Part shown: in pieces, positions 30,789 to 57,662 of the stretch
How the letters are laid out: the number at the start of each line of letters is the position of its first letter
How positions within the stretch are numbered: position 1 is the first letter of the stretch
NCBI GenBank assembly: GCA_964394405.1
Contig: CAYMVY010000001.1
Location: 102,546-166,545 of the forward strand
Source: an uncultured Gammaproteobacteria bacterium
GTDB lineage: Bacteria > Patescibacteriota > Patescibacteriia > Magasanikbacterales > UBA922
Length of the DNA: 64,000 nt
Reading direction: 5' to 3'
The notes under the pieces: generated by a model
Databases searched by the model: none
Seen by the model: the letters and a program-made list of their open reading frames with translations, nothing else
What the model was told of the DNA's origin: nothing
Made by a program: the position numbers and the translations under genes

Positions 30789-31571
30789 ATGTTCATCAAT
30801 AATCTCAATCCAATACTCCTAGAATTCGGACCATTCACCATTCGCTGGTATGGAGTAATGCTTGGGGTTGGCGTACTAGCATGTCTTATCGTCTATTACT
30901 GGCTAGCCAAAAAAGACAAAGAAAAACTAAACACCGTGTACGACTTGTCAGTCTGGTTGATTGTCGGGGGACTTATTGGAGCACGTTTAGGGCACATCAT
31001 GTTCTACAATTTACCCTATTTTTTAGCTCATCCCAGCGAAATAATATTTATCAATCACGGTGGACTTTCCAGTCATGGACTCACGATTGGACTACTCGCA
31101 ACCGCTTGGCTATATCAAAAAATAAAGAAAATAGACCTGAGAAATTATCTTGATCTCATGGTCGTGCCTATTCCCCTTCTCGCCGGATGTATTCGCATCG
31201 GAAATTTTTTTAACTCAGAGATTATTGGAAAAATAACTGATGTTCCGTGGGGTGTATATTTTGCTCAAGTTGATGGAGTGGACCATCTACCTATTTTTCG
31301 CCACCCACAACAACTATACGAAGCTCTTACCTGCTTTGCAATTTTTTTATTCATACTTTTCATCTATAAAAAAATTCAACCAAGCAAAAAACAACTATTC
31401 ACCTTTTTTATATTTCTCTTCTCCTATTTCACGACAAGGTTTTTATTGGAATTTACCAAAGAGCCTTTGAACTCCTTTGACTCTTTTCTTTCAACCGGTC
31501 AACTCCTCAGTATTCCCTTTATTATGTGGAGTGCATGGTGGCTTTTGAAAAAATTAAAAGTAAAAAAATAA
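30789..31571 (+). CDS. lgt: Prolipoprotein diacylglyceryl transferase
   Basis: MFINNLNPILLEFGPFTIRWYGVMLGVGV ... HGGLSSHGLTIGLL, the Lgt signature. Confidence 0.9.
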   Translation: MFINNLNPILLEFGPFTIRWYGVMLGVGVLACLIVYYWLAKKDKEKLNTVYDLSVWLIVGGLIGARLGHIMFYNLPYFLAHPSEIIFINHGGLSSHGLTIGLLATAWLYQKIKKIDLRNYLDLMVVPIPLLAGCIRIGNFFNSEIIGKITDVPWGVYFAQVDGVDHLPIFRHPQQLYEALTCFAIFLFILFIYKKIQPSKKQLFTFFIFLFSYFTTRFLLEFTKEPLNSFDSFLSTGQLLSIPFIMWSAWWLLKKLKVKK

Positions 31572-31572
31572 A

Positions 31573-31600
31573 TCCGCTTCATAGCGGATTTTTTATAAGA
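31573..31600 (+). terminator. Rho-independent terminator after lgt
   Basis: aatccgcttcatagcggatt followed by a T-run. Confidence 0.75.
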
Positions 31601-31664
31601 AGGAGACAGCGGGCTCGAGGTAGCAATGCAACAGATCGCCAACCAAGAACCCACTAACAGGACG

Positions 31665-32023
31665 AACAGCTTCACGGAGCACCAACAAGCTCACCGAGTG
31701 CGCTGTGGAGCTCACTCGGCGTCTCATCAGGCACCACTCCAACACGCGCCTCGAAGTGGAAAGGACACCTAGTCAGAGGGTACGTGCGCTTCTGGCCGTA
31801 CCAGTTGGCAGCACCACACTCGCTACCTTCTGGCCCACTGCTGCGAGGGCAGGCTTCCGGGGCGACGAAAATGCGATCGAAACCCTCAGGACGCAGAAGC
31901 ACCACTTTTATGGAGAGTGCCGTAACTGCCGGATGGGTTTTCTGACCGTGACAGGAAATGAACACAACTCGCTCGGACATACAATCACACACCTTTGTCT
32001 GAATGAACAGACGTGAAGTTGAT
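31665..32023 (+). ncRNA. rnpB: GC-rich structured RNA, probably RNase P RNA
   Basis: About 58% GC in a 40% GC genome. A P1-like terminal pairing exists: CAGCUUCACGG at 31667-31677 pairs with CGUGAAGUUG at 32012-32021. An internal P3-like hairpin is CCGAGUG-N-CACUCGG. Motifs GUGGAAAGGACACC, CAGAGGGUA, AGGGCAGG, GACGAAAAUGCGAUCGAAACCC, GGAGAGUGCCGUAACUGCC and GAAUGAACAGA resemble the CR-I to CR-V regions of bacterial RNase P RNA. The overlapping ORFs on both strands are probably artefacts. Confidence 0.45.
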
Positions 32024-32115
32024 ATGCAGAGCCTAACACAATTTTTCCCATAACGTCAAACAAAAAATCCGCGTTGAGCGGAAAATTTTGGCAAACAAAA
32101 AACTGAGTACAGAAT

Positions 32116-32221
32116 CTAGGCGCCGACCTACTCTCGCCTTGCGACTACCATTGGCGCTGAAGGGCTTAACTGCCGTGTTCGGGATGAGAACGGGTGGACC
32201 CCCTTCGCAAAAAGCACCTAG
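32116..32221 (-). rRNA. rrf: 5S rRNA
   Basis: Minus-strand sequence ...GGTCCACCCGTTCTCATCCCGAACACGGCAGTTAAGCCCTTCAGCGCCAATGGTAGTCGCAAGGCGAGAGTAGGTCGGCGCCTAG matches the 5S consensus (CCGAAC, GGTAGT, AGAGTAGG). Confidence 0.8.
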
Positions 32222-32284
32222 ATTCTATACTCAGTCTATATTGTAAAGTAACAAAGTTGTTGCAAGCAAGCATTCTTCATAAAC

Positions 32285-35650
<3,366 letters not shown>

Positions 35651-36600: not shown

Positions 36601-37395
36601 TTACTCGAGACCGGCGCTTTCCGGTCTGTAGTGAATCGCGATGGCTTCGCTTATGAATTCCTCGTAGAGGTTTTCACTGCGTACACCACCGTCTTTTTCA
36701 TCGACGGCTTCGACGTCAACAAGCTGAGTCCTGATCTTCGCCATCCCGATACGTTCAGGAATGCGAATGGTGCCCATGAGCTTGAGGACTAGTCCACGTT
36801 CAGACAGAACCAAACCGGCTTCTTTTCCGGAAGTGCCGTCCTCCTCGACGACAGTGAATATCACCGTGGTCTGGTTGAGACTATCCCACATGGGGTCAGC
36901 CTTGAAGGTCGCAGCGACACTGAAACGATTCGTCGTGATGTCGAAGTCGGTCACGAACGGGAGCTCAGTTTCAGGATTGTAGAACGTGCGAAGTACATCT
37001 TCATTCCCCTGGGCCGGAGGAACGAAAAGCCGGTAGGTCAGCGAAGTGATTCGCTTACCCTTGAAGTGGTCACCACAGGGGATGATGCGGGCGTAATGAA
37101 ACGCCTGCTCCTGCCCCACATACGCGACCTCGGACTCGAGCGAGAGCGGTAGAACGAGGAAATCGTTGGAACCACAGCGCTCGACCACCAGCTGAGGGAG
37201 GGTTTTAACCTCCTTGACCTGACACGTTTCGATGGAACCCTGAGCCAGGGGCATCTCAGTCGACGAGTCGACAGCCGAGACGGACGACAGCCGAGGATGC
37301 TCGGGAGGCGATGGATTATCGCATCCGGCGTACAGGTTGAACGCGAAGATGTAGATGGCGATGCAGATGAACTGTGACGGAAACTTCTTAGACAC
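36601..37395 (-). CDS. GC-rich hypothetical lipoprotein (GTG start, SD AGGAGCAACCACC, lipobox LYAGC)
   Basis: VSKKFPSQFICIAIYIFAFNLYAGCDNPSPPEH... Region is about 55-60% GC against a 40% background. The alternative-frame ORF 37038-37424 is a GC artefact. Confidence 0.6.
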   Translation of the reverse strand: MSKKFPSQFICIAIYIFAFNLYAGCDNPSPPEHPRLSSVSAVDSSTEMPLAQGSIETCQVKEVKTLPQLVVERCGSNDFLVLPLSLESEVAYVGQEQAFHYARIIPCGDHFKGKRITSLTYRLFVPPAQGNEDVLRTFYNPETELPFVTDFDITTNRFSVAATFKADPMWDSLNQTTVIFTVVEEDGTSGKEAGLVLSERGLVLKLMGTIRIPERIGMAKIRTQLVDVEAVDEKDGGVRSENLYEEFISEAIAIHYRPESAGLE

Positions 37396-37614
37396 GGTGG
37401 TTGCTCCTGATTGCGTGTGATCACTCGAGATGTGTCTATCTCGAAGCTGCAAGAGTATAGAGTAAATAATGAATTTTGTCAATATAATATATAAATAAAA
37501 CAACCGTCATTAGCGGTTGTCATATACTCTTGCAATATAAAAATAATCATTTTTTTATGTACTCACCATACTACAAAATAGTGTATTCTGTACTATACAG
37601 TAACATACAACAAA

Positions 37615-42825: not shown

Positions 42826-43581
42826 TCAATTCCCTGCGGTTGCGACAGCGTAAAACGCCATAGAACCAGACAAGGGAGCGAGAAAATTGTCATCGAAAAG
42901 TTCAGCAAAAAGAGTAGTGCCCTTCTCACACAAACTCTCGAAGTATCCACTGACCAATGTTGCCGCAACAACCGCGCACGCAACAGACAGGTCCGAATAC
43001 GAGGACGGATACAACGGGAACCACCAGTCGAGCACGACCGTGATAAGCCCAGTAATCACCCCGGTGTAGAAGTAACCGATGGCACCGATCCACGTCTTGG
43101 TTCCACCCTTCCACACTGGCTTTTTGCCCCAGGCAATGCCCGAGAGCCGAGCAGCCGGGTCACCAAATGCGAATATCACCACCGCAGGAACCACTGCCCA
43201 CAGCGGAACACCGATCGCAAGCGGAATGATGATCCCCACAGTGAAATGAATCGCAGTAGCAGGCTTCCCGCGTTCACTCGACCTAATGACACCAGTCTGT
43301 ATGAGGAGCCATTTCTCGAGAAAGAGGAATGTCCGTGACAGCCACGGTACACGAAAATACGGCTGTCCCGTGTCCTTCCAGTTGCGTACGAAGAAGTGGT
43401 AGAGAGGAATGCGAATGCAGATGTCGAAGGCGGAGATACCCCCGCCAAAGATGAGTGCAGCAGCGACCTTTTCGTCATCACGAAACGGGAGAATCATCCC
43501 GAAGATGATGGCGATGACACCGATCGAAGCGTGAAAGACTGCTCGCCCCACCTGAGACGTAATCTTATGATGAGCTTCCAT
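42826..43581 (-). CDS. GC-rich CTP-transferase-1 family (CdsA/dolichol-kinase-like) integral membrane protein
   Basis: FAFGDPAARLSGIAWGKKPVWKGGTKTWIGAIGYF resembles the CdsA/polyprenol kinase signature. Region is about 55-60% GC. A hairpin plus T-run lies downstream at about 42770-42812. Confidence 0.55.
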   Translation of the reverse strand: MEAHHKITSQVGRAVFHASIGVIAIIFGMILPFRDDEKVAAALIFGGGISAFDICIRIPLYHFFVRNWKDTGQPYFRVPWLSRTFLFLEKWLLIQTGVIRSSERGKPATAIHFTVGIIIPLAIGVPLWAVVPAVVIFAFGDPAARLSGIAWGKKPVWKGGTKTWIGAIGYFYTGVITGLITVVLDWWFPLYPSSYSDLSVACAVVAATLVSGYFESLCEKGTTLFAELFDDNFLAPLSGSMAFYAVATAGN

Positions 43582-43688
43582 GATAGACCTCCAGAGCCAG
43601 AGAAGCCTTGCCTCTTGTATCATTTCCAAAACAAAAAAGCAAGGGAAACCTTGCTTTTTATAATCTTCAATTTTTGATCTTTCTTTAA

Positions 43689-48048: not shown

Positions 48049-48423
48049 ATGACAGATCGAAGAGCAATAATCAACATCAAGCCCGAGGGCGACCATGCGG
48101 TCAAGTTCGAGACCAGCACGACCGTGAGTCAGCTACCGATCCAGATCTTCCGATTCCCGCTCACCAAGCAGGAACAGGCTCGACTGTTCAGACTCCGCAA
48201 GACCGACCCGATCGGCGCCGCGCTCATCTCCGACCTCTCCAAGGTCGAGGGCATCGCAACAGCTGAAGTGCCAATGGTACACGAGGTACACATCACCCTC
48301 AACAAGACGCACTTCTGGGAAGACCTCGCTGTCCAAAACGCGATCATCCCGCTACTGAAGCTAGCTGTCGGGAGGTCTCTCGAGACCGACGCCGAACACG
48401 TGACGATCGCAACCTTGGGATAA
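48049..48423 (+). CDS. GC-rich hypothetical protein (124 aa)
   Basis: About 58% GC; SD GAGGT 5 nt upstream of the ATG. No recognisable domain. Confidence 0.55.
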   Translation: MTDRRAIINIKPEGDHAVKFETSTTVSQLPIQIFRFPLTKQEQARLFRLRKTDPIGAALISDLSKVEGIATAEVPMVHEVHITLNKTHFWEDLAVQNAIIPLLKLAVGRSLETDAEHVTIATLG

Positions 48424-48456
48424 TGTGGTGGGGTATTCCCTACCACGATCCCAACA

Positions 48457-48531
48457 AAGCCGCGGTTTCGAGTCAACCGCGGCTTCCATTTAAAAACAAA
48501 ATACCCTCGATAAATCAAGGGTATTTTTTAT
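48457..48531 (+). terminator. Tandem hairpins (aagccgcggtt-N-aaccgcggctt; ataccctcgataaatcaagggtat + T-run) terminating the GC-rich ORF
   Basis: Read directly from the sequence. Confidence 0.65.
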
Positions 48532-48540
48532 TTCTTTTTA

Positions 48541-55249: not shown

Positions 55250-56077
55250 ATGTTTGAAATAGCAAGTTCAACAGAATTCATATTCAAATGGCAAACATTA
55301 ATCGGCAGCGCGTTAGGTCCTTTCCTTGCTGTGATACTTTCGGCTATCGGTTTTTGGATTAAATCCACTATTAAAAACAAAAAAGAACGGAAGGAATCTC
55401 TAAGGAGAATAGAAATTAGTGTTACAAAAAGTCTCAACGACGCTTTCACTGTTTGCGAACAACTCAAGTGGTTTTCGCAACGAATAAAAAATTTAATAAT
55501 TGAATCAAAATCTATAGTGGATAACAAAATCTTTTTCTTAAACCGAATAAATTTCCCAACAACAAGAGAGATCTATCGAGATATTGATATGTCTATCTTC
55601 AAAGTCAAAAGCTATTATTTGCACAACAAGCTTATGTGGATAGATGCGGGAATAAAAGAAACCAATGAAACTATATTAAACCTAAAAAAAGATTTTGAAG
55701 ATTTAATACGACAAAATGAAATACTAATTGCTGTGATGAGAGATAATCCGAATCCCCTCCTCCAAAGAGAAGCATACGAAAGAAACTTAGAATCATTTTC
55801 AAAAGCAATGGACGACTATGTTTCAAAAAGTATCAAGTTAGGTATCGAAGTCATGACACAAATAAAAATCTACAACGAAAAATTGCGAAAAAAATATGGC
55901 TTTTGGTTTTTATGGAAACAAGAAGGAACCAAACTTAAATATTTCCACAATAAGACAGAGCAGAGGACATTTGCTCGAAATCTTGATTCCTTAGATCGTA
56001 TTGATAATGCAATAAAAAAAGACGTGGAATCTTTGATAAACAAAATGGAAGAAAGAGCTAAAAAATTAGCTCAGTAA
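55250..56077 (+). CDS. Hypothetical membrane-anchored coiled-coil protein
   Basis: N-terminal TM (LIGSALGPFLAVILSAIGFWI), then a K/E-rich predicted coiled coil. Confidence 0.55.
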   Translation: MFEIASSTEFIFKWQTLIGSALGPFLAVILSAIGFWIKSTIKNKKERKESLRRIEISVTKSLNDAFTVCEQLKWFSQRIKNLIIESKSIVDNKIFFLNRINFPTTREIYRDIDMSIFKVKSYYLHNKLMWIDAGIKETNETILNLKKDFEDLIRQNEILIAVMRDNPNPLLQREAYERNLESFSKAMDDYVSKSIKLGIEVMTQIKIYNEKLRKKYGFWFLWKQEGTKLKYFHNKTEQRTFARNLDSLDRIDNAIKKDVESLINKMEERAKKLAQ

Positions 56078-56176
56078 AAAAACCAATTTTAATTCAAAAA
56101 CCGCCTCAAGCAGTTGTTTTATTGTTATAAAAAAGATGAAGTCGGATCCGCATAGCGCGAACCCGACTCATAACGG

Positions 56177-56524
56177 TCAGCTCCTCCAGGGGATCGGAAC
56201 TCCGTGCCTCTTCATCCGTTTTTCCCACAACTCGTCGAGGTGGGAACTCCGGCAATTAGGGCACTGGAACATCAACTTCATACAGAATCCATAGAAGAAC
56301 TCAGTTCCCCACGAGGACTTGGACGAGGGATTGATCTTCCTCTTCACGAAGTTGATCGTGCCCCAGAACACGAACTCCTCGAGGAAGCTTGGAATGTAGA
56401 AGACGAACCCCCAGAGCGGTCTCCAAAAGTACCAGAAGAACTTGTCAACGAACAGGTACCAGGGACTGCAGACGTACCAGAGCCAAGAGGGTCGCTTAAT
56501 GGTCTTCGGCTTAGTCTTGCCCAT
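56177..56524 (-). CDS. GC-rich islet gene: small Trp/Phe-rich membrane protein with C-terminal zinc ribbon (CPNC)
   Basis: From the ATG with consensus SD (TAGGAGGTAGCGAC-ATG): MGKTKPKTIKRPSWLWYVCSPWYLFVDKFFWYFWRPLWGFVFYIPSF...QCPNCRSSH. A hairpin plus T-run lies downstream at about 56130-56165. Confidence 0.55.
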   Translation of the reverse strand: MGKTKPKTIKRPSWLWYVCSPWYLFVDKFFWYFWRPLWGFVFYIPSFLEEFVFWGTINFVKRKINPSSKSSWGTEFFYGFCMKLMFQCPNCRSSHLDELWEKRMKRHGVPIPWRS

Positions 56525-56696
56525 GTCGCTACCTCCTAAAATTGATTGCGACAAACTAGGAATATCACAGCTAAAAGGAAAGGTCAATATAAAAACACAA
56601 AAATCCCATTCAGGGATTATTTTTTATTTTAAGTTAGTTCGAAGGCCGGACGCGATGAAGCGATCCGGCCCCGTTCGTCAGGGTACTTCCCCACTA

Positions 56697-57485
56697 CTAC
56701 CGAAGCAGCTCATCTTTCAGTTTAAGCAGATTCGGTACATAAGGAAGACCAGTCTCGAGGAGCCGACGATGGAGCTCGCGTTTCATTCCACCCACACCAT
56801 CTTTCTTATAGATGGTGCAAACATCAAAGAAACACTCCCACCCCTGCTTCACCGCAAACGAACACTCCTGCTCGTACGCATCAATCTCTGTATTGAACCA
56901 GACACGAACATGATCTTCACTCGGTACGTCATCGCGGTTCTTCACGGTGAACATTTCGAGAGGTGCGTGTTTGAGCTCATACTGCTTGTAGTGGACAAAC
57001 TCGTGCAGTAGAACCATTTGCAGGAACTGTGGACTCTCTTGAGGGTTGAGGAGGTTGCTCAGGGAGACATTCATGACAGGGGTCATGCCCCTACCATGGA
57101 TATCAAGAACCATAAACTGGGCGACAGATGCCCCTCTCTGAAGGTCATTGTCCTGTAGATTCAGAAAGAGATCGCCTTTCACAATGAGCTTATGCATCTC
57201 GACACTGATCTCAGGGGCCGGATGCGAGAGTACCAGATCCTTGAGGACTAGACTTGCGTCCTGGCTCACGATCCTGCGAGGCACGCTGGCTACTACCAGA
57301 GCTTCACATGAGTTCATGGGCCGGCTCACGTGGGGGCTAGTACTGACACCACCACCCTTCGTCGTGCTCTGAGTGGGTGTCGCCACTTTGACCACGACGA
57401 GCGCGACCACGATGCCGAGGACGACGAGTAACCACTTCCACCAGTCATGGGTGCGAACAGTTTTGACGTTGGTACGACGAGCCAT
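56697..57485 (-). CDS. GC-rich islet gene: membrane-anchored protein with HExxH zinc-metallopeptidase motif
   Basis: From the ATG with SD AGGAGAG: MARRTNVKTVRTHDWWKWLLVVLGIVVALVVV (TM) ... MVLLHEFVHYKQYE. Downstream hairpins at 56595-56625 and 56644-56670. Confidence 0.55.
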   Translation of the reverse strand: MARRTNVKTVRTHDWWKWLLVVLGIVVALVVVKVATPTQSTTKGGGVSTSPHVSRPMNSCEALVVASVPRRIVSQDASLVLKDLVLSHPAPEISVEMHKLIVKGDLFLNLQDNDLQRGASVAQFMVLDIHGRGMTPVMNVSLSNLLNPQESPQFLQMVLLHEFVHYKQYELKHAPLEMFTVKNRDDVPSEDHVRVWFNTEIDAYEQECSFAVKQGWECFFDVCTIYKKDGVGGMKRELHRRLLETGLPYVPNLLKLKDELLR

Positions 57486-57582
57486 GGAACACTCTCCTGT
57501 GTATGAGAAGGAACACCTCAGTAAAGACCGTTCTTTAAAGAGACTAGAGTTTATACCATTTCTTACCGGTTTTGTCAACCGT

Positions 57583-57611
57583 ATTGACATATGTTATATC
57601 ATGTGGTATAG
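57583..57611 (+). promoter_or_regulatory. Consensus sigma70 promoter (TTGACA-17-TATAGT) for secE-nusG-rplK
   Basis: ttgacatatgttatatcatgtggtatagt, about 50 nt upstream of secE. Confidence 0.6.
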
Positions 57612-57662
57612 TGTTTTCATCAAATCGGCTCAAGGCCGTTTTTAAAATAGCGAAGATTTTGT

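Follow-up and report, generated by a model that had tools for sequence, protein, structure and literature searches.

Do two neighbouring genes of unusual composition, lying between gyrB and secE in a Patescibacteria genome, form one acquired system, or are they separate genes that share a site of exchange? The question is raised by a 64,000-nucleotide (nt) stretch of a 597-kb contig from an uncultured bacterium of the Magasanikbacterales (the whole stretch is called the window below, and positions count from its first letter unless a locus is named). The original prediction, made from the letters of the window, described a GC-rich two-gene module here, a candidate acquired system consisting of a membrane-anchored protein with an HExxH motif (encoded by what we call gene A) and a Trp/Phe-rich membrane peptide (gene B). 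Our analysis leads us to another reading, to which we give a probability of about 0.6: A and B would be two independent, separately transcribed accessory cassettes in a small recombination hotspot between gyrB and secE, A encoding an exported, membrane-tethered zincin and B an orphan membrane protein.

Both genes are on the minus strand and lie, as had been stated, between a 275-amino-acid (aa) coiled-coil open reading frame (ORF) downstream of gyrB and the promoter of secE. Their features are as follows:

57578..57550, minus strand, promoter-like site of A: TTGACA (57578..57573), a 17-nt spacer and TGgTATAAA ending at 57550
57498..57492, minus strand, Shine-Dalgarno sequence AGGAGAG of A, 6 nt before the ATG at 57485
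57485..56697, minus strand, gene A, 262 aa
56672..56644, minus strand, GC hairpin after A
56618..56602, minus strand, terminator hairpin of A, with T-run
56587..56559, minus strand, promoter-like site of B: TTGACC (56587..56582), a 17-nt spacer and TGaTATTCC (extended -10) ending at 56559
56537..56532, minus strand, Shine-Dalgarno sequence AGGAGG of B, 7 nt before the ATG at 56524
56524..56177, minus strand, gene B, 115 aa
56169..56139, minus strand, GC hairpin after B
56115..56099, minus strand, terminator hairpin of B, with T-run

The promoter-like site of A stands back-to-back with that of secE and is conserved in two related loci (L001 and L003); it is missing from the listing of the scan tool because its -10 hexamer ends in A, and was read from the sequence. 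The promoter-like site of B, together with its Shine-Dalgarno sequence, is also found ahead of the B homologue in L004. After each gene a GC-rich hairpin lacking a T-run is followed by about 25 A/T-rich nt and then by a short hairpin with a T-run, the latter being those picked up by the terminator scan; fold z-scores are -3.0 and -4.1. The Shine-Dalgarno sites of both genes and a hairpin terminator for each had been recognised correctly in the original prediction. Since each gene has its own promoter-like site, Shine-Dalgarno sequence and terminator, A and B qualify, by sequence criteria, as separate transcription units. The start of A at 57485 is credible because AGGAGAG lies 6 nt upstream of it, all five A orthologues begin with MARRTN, and the promoter lies downstream of the alternative ATG at 57590, which would give a 297-aa ORF and was rejected. 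The ratio of nonsynonymous to synonymous divergence (dN/dS) of A is 0.18-0.27.

The two genes stand out in base composition. The window has a mean guanine-plus-cytosine (GC) content of 42%, with local 300-nt peaks of up to 59% in the islet. Whole-gene values are 52.5% for A and 52.3% for B, with a GC content at third codon positions (GC3) of 0.61 and 0.79, respectively, compared with 0.30-0.43 in 15 ordinary genes of the window, ribosomal protein genes included; it is in third codon positions that the GC excess of both genes sits. The compositional anomaly claimed earlier is thus real, although the 55-60% GC given for the two genes overstated it. It is kept in the orthologues of A (GC3 0.53-0.58; 0.53-0.61 over all alleles), even at saturated synonymous sites.

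A genome-collection scan gave Candidatus Magasanikbacteria bacterium UBA922 (locus L005) as the closest relative; with a narrow alignment of A, it returned UBA922 and one weak partial match (L006). The window and L005 keep the order ftsW, a 307-aa membrane protein (mem307), gyrB, the gap, secE, nusG, rplK and a 465-aa secreted protein (sec465). Amino-acid identity between the two is 0.93 for gyrB, 0.95 for nusG, 0.93 for rplK, 0.79 for ftsW, 0.55 for A, 0.49 for sec465 and 0.50 for mem307. The refuting condition that came with the original prediction, housekeeping orthologues in the same position and no compositional anomaly, gave a divided answer: positional orthologues of A do adjoin secE in related genomes, but they retain the anomaly and, at 55% identity against 93-95% for gyrB, nusG and rplK, do not behave like housekeeping genes.

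Synonymous divergence (dS) tells A apart from its neighbours. Between L001 and L005 it is 0.16 for A (90% aa identity), 1.29 for nusG and 1.26 for the C-terminus of gyrB; between the window and L001 it is 1.69 for A (56% aa identity), 0.93 for nusG and 0.41 for the C-terminus of gyrB. The dS of A is at odds with that of both flanks, which indicates lateral exchange of alleles. In a sliding comparison, L001 and L005 are 90-96% identical over a block of about 1 kb, which runs from some 150 nt ahead of the A start codon to the A stop codon; identity is lower in the flanks (77-88% in rplK and nusG, 59-71% in secE). Such a pattern is the mark of an A allele that was replaced recently together with its promoter. 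There are two deep allele classes, that of the window and that of L001, L005, L058 and L059. The idea of acquisition from a foreign source is right in part: the DNA is compositionally foreign and laterally exchanged. Scans of IMG/VR with A, B and the terminator sequence found no relatives, leaving a phage origin without support.

The alternative that fares best, which we regard as unlikely, makes A a vertically inherited, lineage-specific envelope protease, with a GC3 set by gene-specific selection (on codon usage or mRNA structure) and with ordinary gene loss in place of a hotspot. Such a history would fit the position of A, found beside secE in all related contigs that have the gene, its identity between the window and L005, near that of the other non-housekeeping envelope proteins sec465 and mem307, and a GC3 that stays high despite saturated dS. 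It is contradicted by the dS values of A when set beside those of the flanks (0.16 vs 1.26-1.29; 1.69 vs 0.41-0.93), by the sharp limits of the 90-96% identity block, confined to the A promoter and ORF, and by an unrelated 75-aa gene that replaces A in L004 and L060. Moreover, sec465 and mem307 are as divergent as A and have a normal GC3 (0.33-0.37).

The content of the gap differs between related genomes. Read from secE towards gyrB, it is:

Window: A, B and the AT-rich 275-aa ORF (cc275)
L001: A, an unrelated GC-rich 236/267-aa ORF (p236) and an AT-rich 128-aa membrane ORF (mem128)
L003, L005 (UBA922) and L059: A alone
L058: A, then the contig end
L004 and L060: the unrelated 75-aa ORF (p75), then B
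L061: B, followed directly by gyrB; about 100 nt of contig precede B

A occurs without B at least four times (L001, L003/L005, L059), and B without A in three contigs (L004, L060, L061), with gyrB straight after it and, in two of them, p75 in the place of A. A and B are therefore not linked, and the description of the pair as a two-gene module or system finds no support: promoters and terminators are separate and the genes do not co-occur. An all-against-all BLAST found no similarity among B, p236, p75, cc275, mem128, the other islet proteins and the small partner proteins of distant A homologues described below, except between two of these partners of 80 aa. Pfam and NCBIfam gave nothing above threshold for A, B or the cassette proteins beside them, and scans against PHROGs and PADLOC gave no meaningful match for A, B, p236, p75 or cc275, so that none was assigned to a defence or phage family; one weak PADLOC match of B (E-value 0.028) was judged not meaningful. 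No integrase, transposase, recombinase or tRNA lies within 10 kb on either side of the gap.

Genes of low GC content are also taken up by the gap, directly downstream of gyrB. Both examples are 31-32% GC and each is found in one genome only:

55250..56077, plus strand, cc275, AT-rich (32% GC) 275-aa ORF with a transmembrane (TM) segment and a coiled coil, downstream of gyrB; absent from L001, L003/L005, L004 and L059
L001 7796-8182, minus strand, mem128, with several TM segments

That A and B together make one functional system, whether a surface protease with a membrane partner, substrate or immunity protein or a co-acquired toxin-immunity pair, seems to us a shade less likely again. The two are adjacent and co-oriented, both GC3-rich and in the same islet, and directly downstream of distant A-family members, too, a small exported protein is encoded, though in convergent orientation. 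These points are outweighed by a promoter and terminator of its own for each gene and by the loci that hold one without the other (four with A, three with B); B is, in addition, dissimilar to the small partners of the distant homologues, and neither A nor B matches the defence models of PADLOC.

What the unrelated cassettes of the gap do share is their 3' end. An alignable element of about 80 nt terminates every one of them (A, B, p236 and p75, in five genomes), with the consensus of a GC hairpin (GGGGTCGGATTGC-loop-GCGTCCGACC), then ACTAACTTATATT, then AAAACAA-CCGCTTGAGGCGG-TTTTT. A covariance model, R1, was built on eight copies of this module, and the window holds the following two:

56592..56674, minus strand, 3' module of cassette A: GC hairpin (GGGGCCGGATCGC..GCGTCCGGCC), ACTAACTTA box, A-rich spacer and terminator hairpin with T-run; 91.6 bits with R1
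56089..56171, minus strand, 3' module of cassette B: GC hairpin (GAGTCGGGTTCGCGC..GCGGATCCGACTT), A/T spacer and terminator CTGCTTGAGGCGG with T-run; 58.1 bits with R1

The model also detects the copy after p75 (37.9 bits) and, weakly, the 3' end of another GC-rich islet (48456..48532; 23.8 bits, E-value 0.004). A in the window and the unrelated p236 in L001 are followed by one and the same 27-nt hairpin, and similarity between the two loci begins exactly at the hairpin base. In the module 92% of the cells at paired positions are paired and one pair is clearly compensated (C-G to U-A), with modest support for covariation from a shuffle control on 8 related sequences. G-U pairs on the sense strand favour a role at the RNA level. 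An ordinary bidirectional intrinsic terminator makes up the second hairpin. Rfam contains no family for the module. The hairpin-plus-box pattern was also sought in metagenomes; the 48 loci returned are all chance matches lacking a hairpin or terminator. We regard the module as a conserved 3'-untranslated-region and terminator unit which also marks recombination junctions.

In L001 the p236 cassette is flanked by direct repeats of about 40 nt (ACTAACTTATATT..AAAACAACCGCTTGAGGCGGTT; L001 6866-6906 and 7750-7790), which are copies of the box and terminator part of the module.

A shared 3' hairpin invites comparison with integration hotspots and integron arrays, which the gap resembles in having variable genes between fixed core genes, single-gene units ending in a hairpin element, foreign composition and gene trees at odds with the flanks. 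It could be argued, then, that the gap is an array of cassettes moved by a structure-specific mechanism acting on that hairpin, in the manner of integron attC sites or REP/RAYT elements and without a recombinase nearby, an explanation that we hold to be very unlikely. The one module on four unrelated ORF types, the identity of the hairpin after A and p236 from its base onwards, the repeats of box and terminator that bracket p236 and the compensated pair would all be expected of it. Integron cassettes, however, are promoterless and end in attC sites of about 57-141 nt with RYYYAAC...GTTRRRY cores, served by an IntI integrase or present as an array of attC sites lacking an integrase (CALIN). Here the hairpin has 27-31 nt and no such cores, each cassette carries a promoter-like site, the array is tiny (1-3 genes), there is no attI or attC-type site, and the 10 kb on either side contain no integrase, transposase or other recombinase and no tRNA. 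The G-U pairs of the sense strand and the ordinary terminator at the module end point to RNA, the covariation support is modest, and the 64 kb of the window contain only two copies, both in the gyrB-secE gap. Just as doubtful is a broader picture of a miniature array in which unrelated GC3-rich single-gene units, each made up of promoter, ORF, GC hairpin and terminator, would be swapped at the 3' hairpin by a structure-directed mechanism without a nearby integrase, and the exported zincin A would act as a diversifying surface factor of an episymbiont towards its host or phages.

Three further GC3-rich ORFs (0.60-0.74) without a Pfam match occur in the window, each followed by a GC-rich hairpin, and the islets may have a common origin or a similar 3'-end architecture:

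36601-37503, minus strand, GC3-rich ORF
42826-43629, minus strand, GC3-rich ORF
48049-48423, plus strand, GC3-rich ORF

The reading frame of B had to be settled against the deposited annotation, which calls a gene on the opposite strand:

56204..56539, plus strand, antisense 111-aa ORF of the deposited annotation (source genome L002 10947-11282; protein P0159)

The notion that B is no gene, this ORF being the real product or the region being non-coding, can practically be dismissed: the annotation and the protein databases do hold only the plus-strand ORF for the genome of the window, but in L004 its frame is broken by 2 stops and no more than 50% identical, whereas the frame of B is open in three sequences and has a consensus Shine-Dalgarno sequence and a high GC3. 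Of the 83 substitutions separating B from its L004 homologue, 25 are at first, 13 at second and 45 at third codon positions. Both sequences keep the frame open, with 69% aa identity and a dN/dS of 0.07; a third homologue, P0158, also has 115 aa and conserves the basic C-terminal tail. Read in its own frame, the plus-strand ORF would have a GC content of 0.79 at first and 0.34 at third codon positions. Because of the substitution pattern, the open frame, the stops in the annotated frame, the dN/dS and P0158, B is, as judged from these sequences, a real gene under purifying selection, annotated on the wrong strand; the plus-strand ORF is probably not a gene.

Aromatic residues (10 Trp, 14 Phe and 5 Tyr) make up 25% of the protein product of B, which is net-basic (18 Lys and Arg vs 7 Asp and Glu), with a basic tail; residues ~13-60 have a very favourable membrane partitioning on the Wimley-White scale. 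The CPNC motif noticed earlier is present at residues 88-91, and the Trp/Phe-rich character and length of B were also described correctly. The zinc ribbon proposed as its ending is not supported: in place of two CxxC or CxxH knuckles with four ligands, B has a single CxxC (C88-P-N-C91) followed by H95, with no second knuckle and with 24 residues beyond the motif; the distant C19 is conserved and C81 is not. That B lacks homologues was nearly right, two other sequences being found among 5.8 billion clusters. No match was obtained in Pfam, NCBIfam, PHROGs or the PDB. B is an orphan small, cationic, aromatic-rich membrane protein, unrelated to A.

For A, the same claim of no homologues turned out to be wrong. 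A word-index search gave only four close relatives (53-56% identity), and a word-index search with the profile of the family only 8 proteins. An exhaustive profile search of 1.84 billion representatives, however, gave 153 at an E-value of 1e-3 or below, 63 of them at 1e-10 or below, mostly of 230-300 aa, so that the family has at least 153 representatives. Wherever members carry a name they belong to Patescibacteria, being from Ca. Uhrbacteria and 'Patescibacteria group' metagenome-assembled genomes. The family has the signature HP...HExxHxxQ...ExEAYxxEC...C plus an N-terminal export or anchor segment.

A itself consists of a basic N-terminus, one TM or signal-anchor helix (~15-34), a linker rich in Ser, Thr, Pro and Gly, and a zincin-like domain with H88-P89, H161-E-F-V-H165, Q168, E200, A203, E207 and the pair C208/C223; the single TM helix, which is strongly hydrophobic, and the HEFVH motif (161-165) had both been pointed out before. 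In an alignment of 143 members, on which all conservation counts rest, H161 is invariant (143/143) and E200 (142/143), P89, E162 and H165 (141/143 each) are nearly so, followed by H88 (137/143), A203 (135/143), Y204 (123/143), E207 and C223 (119/143 each), Q168 (118/143) and C208 (117/143). An N-terminal hydrophobic segment is present in 123 of the 129 full-length members, some of which resemble proteins with cleavable signal peptides. Because four basic residues precede the helix ~15-34, the N-terminus of A would be cytoplasmic and the domain outside; the co-conserved pair C208/C223 fits an extracytoplasmic location. A twin-arginine (Tat) signal was considered for the conserved Arg3-Arg4 and rejected, with about 10 residues between the arginines and the hydrophobic core.

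An AlphaFold2 model of A built on the 143-sequence alignment reached a mean predicted local distance difference test (pLDDT) score of 88.1 and a predicted template modelling (pTM) score of 0.76; an initial model from 5 sequences (pLDDT 59.6) was discarded together with its meaningless Foldseek result. In the model a three-stranded sheet leads to a helix (152-170) that contains HEFVH, as in zincins, where HExxH lies on the active-site helix, and then to a long helix (190-214) bearing E200 and E207. The candidate third ligand, E200, is located on this second helix, 35 residues past H165. Foldseek gave no significant match of the model in the PDB, the top one being 3e11, a predicted zincin-like metalloprotease (probability 0.69, E-value 0.32); among viral models (BFVD) the leading named matches were SprT-like and IrrE N-terminal-like proteins (E-values 0.02-0.5, probability up to 0.96). 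The original prediction of an extracytoplasmic metallopeptidase of the SprT/ImmA kind is plausible in view of the conservation of H161, E162, H165 and E200, these matches and the export segment of the family. On all this evidence A is very probably a zincin-fold protein, for which Glu would be the third ligand; its catalytic activity is predicted from motif and model, and A is probably a zinc protease of a widespread family that has no name.

Known families come close to A at a few points. DUF6782 (PF20573, 'putative metallopeptidase family'), itself an uncharacterised HExxH family, is the only Pfam family matched repeatedly by relatives of A, weakly and in 13 of the 143 (best E-value 2.5e-6), and Peptidase_M91 is matched by 4 of the 143. 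A and 130 of the 143 do not match DUF6782, with no match of A at an E-value of 1 or below, and what sets the A family apart from it is the N-terminal anchor together with the HP motif and the helix with ExEAYxxEC; none of Pfam, NCBIfam, PHROGs and PADLOC has a model for the A family. With SprT/Wss1 and ImmA/IrrE (MEROPS M78) the model of A has in common a small alpha/beta domain, a three-stranded sheet, the HExxH helix and a further helix with a putative ligand, and we take the spacing HExxH...ExEA(Y) of the family to recall HExxH...ExEAN of ImmA/IrrE. SprT has a third His shortly after HExxH; in A the residues after H165 are YKQYELKH, and the family shows no conserved His at this place. The SprT-like model (PF10263) scores A at 12.9 bits (cut-off 25.6, E-value 0.11). 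ImmA/IrrE and SprT work in the cytoplasm, with repressors or DNA-protein crosslinks as their targets, unlike the exported or membrane-tethered A family. All structural E-values for the minimal zincins exceed 0.01, with no match to A at the sequence level. The best match among solved structures, 3e11 (Acel_2062), is itself uncharacterised and aligns over only 113 columns with 6% identity (template modelling score 0.46 on the target). Profile and single-sequence searches of PDB sequences gave no peptidase match for A and nothing for B. Literature searches on DUF6782, Magasanikbacteria islands and Patescibacteria HExxH proteases returned nothing relevant, and no paper mentioning DUF6782 was found.

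Put together, A would be a type-II membrane-tethered protein with a cytoplasmic N-terminus and a minimal extracytoplasmic zincin domain, in which zinc would be bound by His161 and His165 together with Glu200 from the following long helix, Glu162 would serve as catalytic base and Cys208-Cys223 would form an extracellular disulfide. Its most likely activity would be the cleavage of envelope proteins, secreted proteins or surface proteins of a partner cell. Between lineages, alleles of A are exchanged laterally, and the route is probably homologous recombination via the conserved flanks; cassette B comes and goes independently of A. Of this picture, the analysis shows that the genes are real, what their composition is, to which family A belongs, that the content of the gap varies and that dS is incongruent; topology, metal ligands, protease activity, substrates and exchange route are inferred.

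Several points weigh against this reading of two independent cassettes, one of them encoding a zincin. The fold is assigned without experiment or a significant match to a solved peptidase, at Foldseek E-values of 0.02-0.3, and A itself has no Pfam family match and reaches no NCBIfam threshold. Only three things speak for the topology of A, namely the positive-inside rule, N-termini of relatives that resemble signal peptides, and the conserved Cys pair. No function can be assigned to B. The related contexts are a handful of short metagenome contigs, the independence of A and B being judged from about 8 loci, and in the window itself the two genes are adjacent and co-oriented, so that they could interact locally. 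Finally, a single old transfer followed by amelioration fails to explain a GC3 that is persistently high across saturated alleles; this composition may be selected, or alleles may have been drawn repeatedly from an unseen GC-richer pool.

Patescibacteria (also called Candidate Phyla Radiation, CPR) have tiny genomes, many live attached to other cells, and what they display at the surface is largely unknown. The analysis adds to this group an exported zincin-like family, present across Patescibacteria and without a Pfam model, with a clear signature and a confident structural model. Because one clade exchanges alleles of A laterally at a fixed hotspot beside secE, the family is a candidate for interaction with hosts, phages or competitors, and it is tractable for biochemistry. 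A wrong-strand gene call in a deposited genome is corrected, and the two-hairpin 3' module shared by unrelated cassettes may bear on the way in which reduced genomes acquire genes; no new mechanism is demonstrated by the analysis of the A and B cassettes.

Three remote members of the A family (24-27% identity) stand in unrelated neighbourhoods, none of which adjoins secE; at two of these loci the GC3 of the A homologue again exceeds that of the surrounding genes. Just downstream of each, in convergent orientation, is a gene for a small signal-peptide protein of 80-87 aa:

L007 6723-6965, minus strand, small signal-peptide protein
L009 2668-2910, minus strand, small signal-peptide protein
L008 6781-7044, minus strand, small signal-peptide protein

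Two of the three are homologous (E-value 4e-9), end in KNSPGSIDLDY and have a conserved Cys-x-His; B is unrelated to them. These small exported proteins may be a partner, substrate or inhibitor of the A family. A Fic-domain protein is encoded directly upstream of the distant A-family member in one locus (L009 841-1779, plus strand).

On the other side of the promoter of A, the secE-nusG leader (window 57584-57662, plus strand) contains a near-consensus promoter (TTGACA-17-TGgTATAGT) and, about 14 nt past the -10 hexamer and ahead of the secE start codon, a short hairpin (CGGC-loop-GCCG) with TTTTTAAAAT. Counterparts are found at L001 5790-5905, L003 2350-2470, L004 90-200 and L058 325-440; over the five genomes stem and T-run are invariant and the loop varies, and the hairpin is possibly a leader terminator or attenuator. 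Elsewhere in the window, positions 31500-35000 form a broad stretch of 48-51% GC without long ORFs, which possibly holds rRNA genes.

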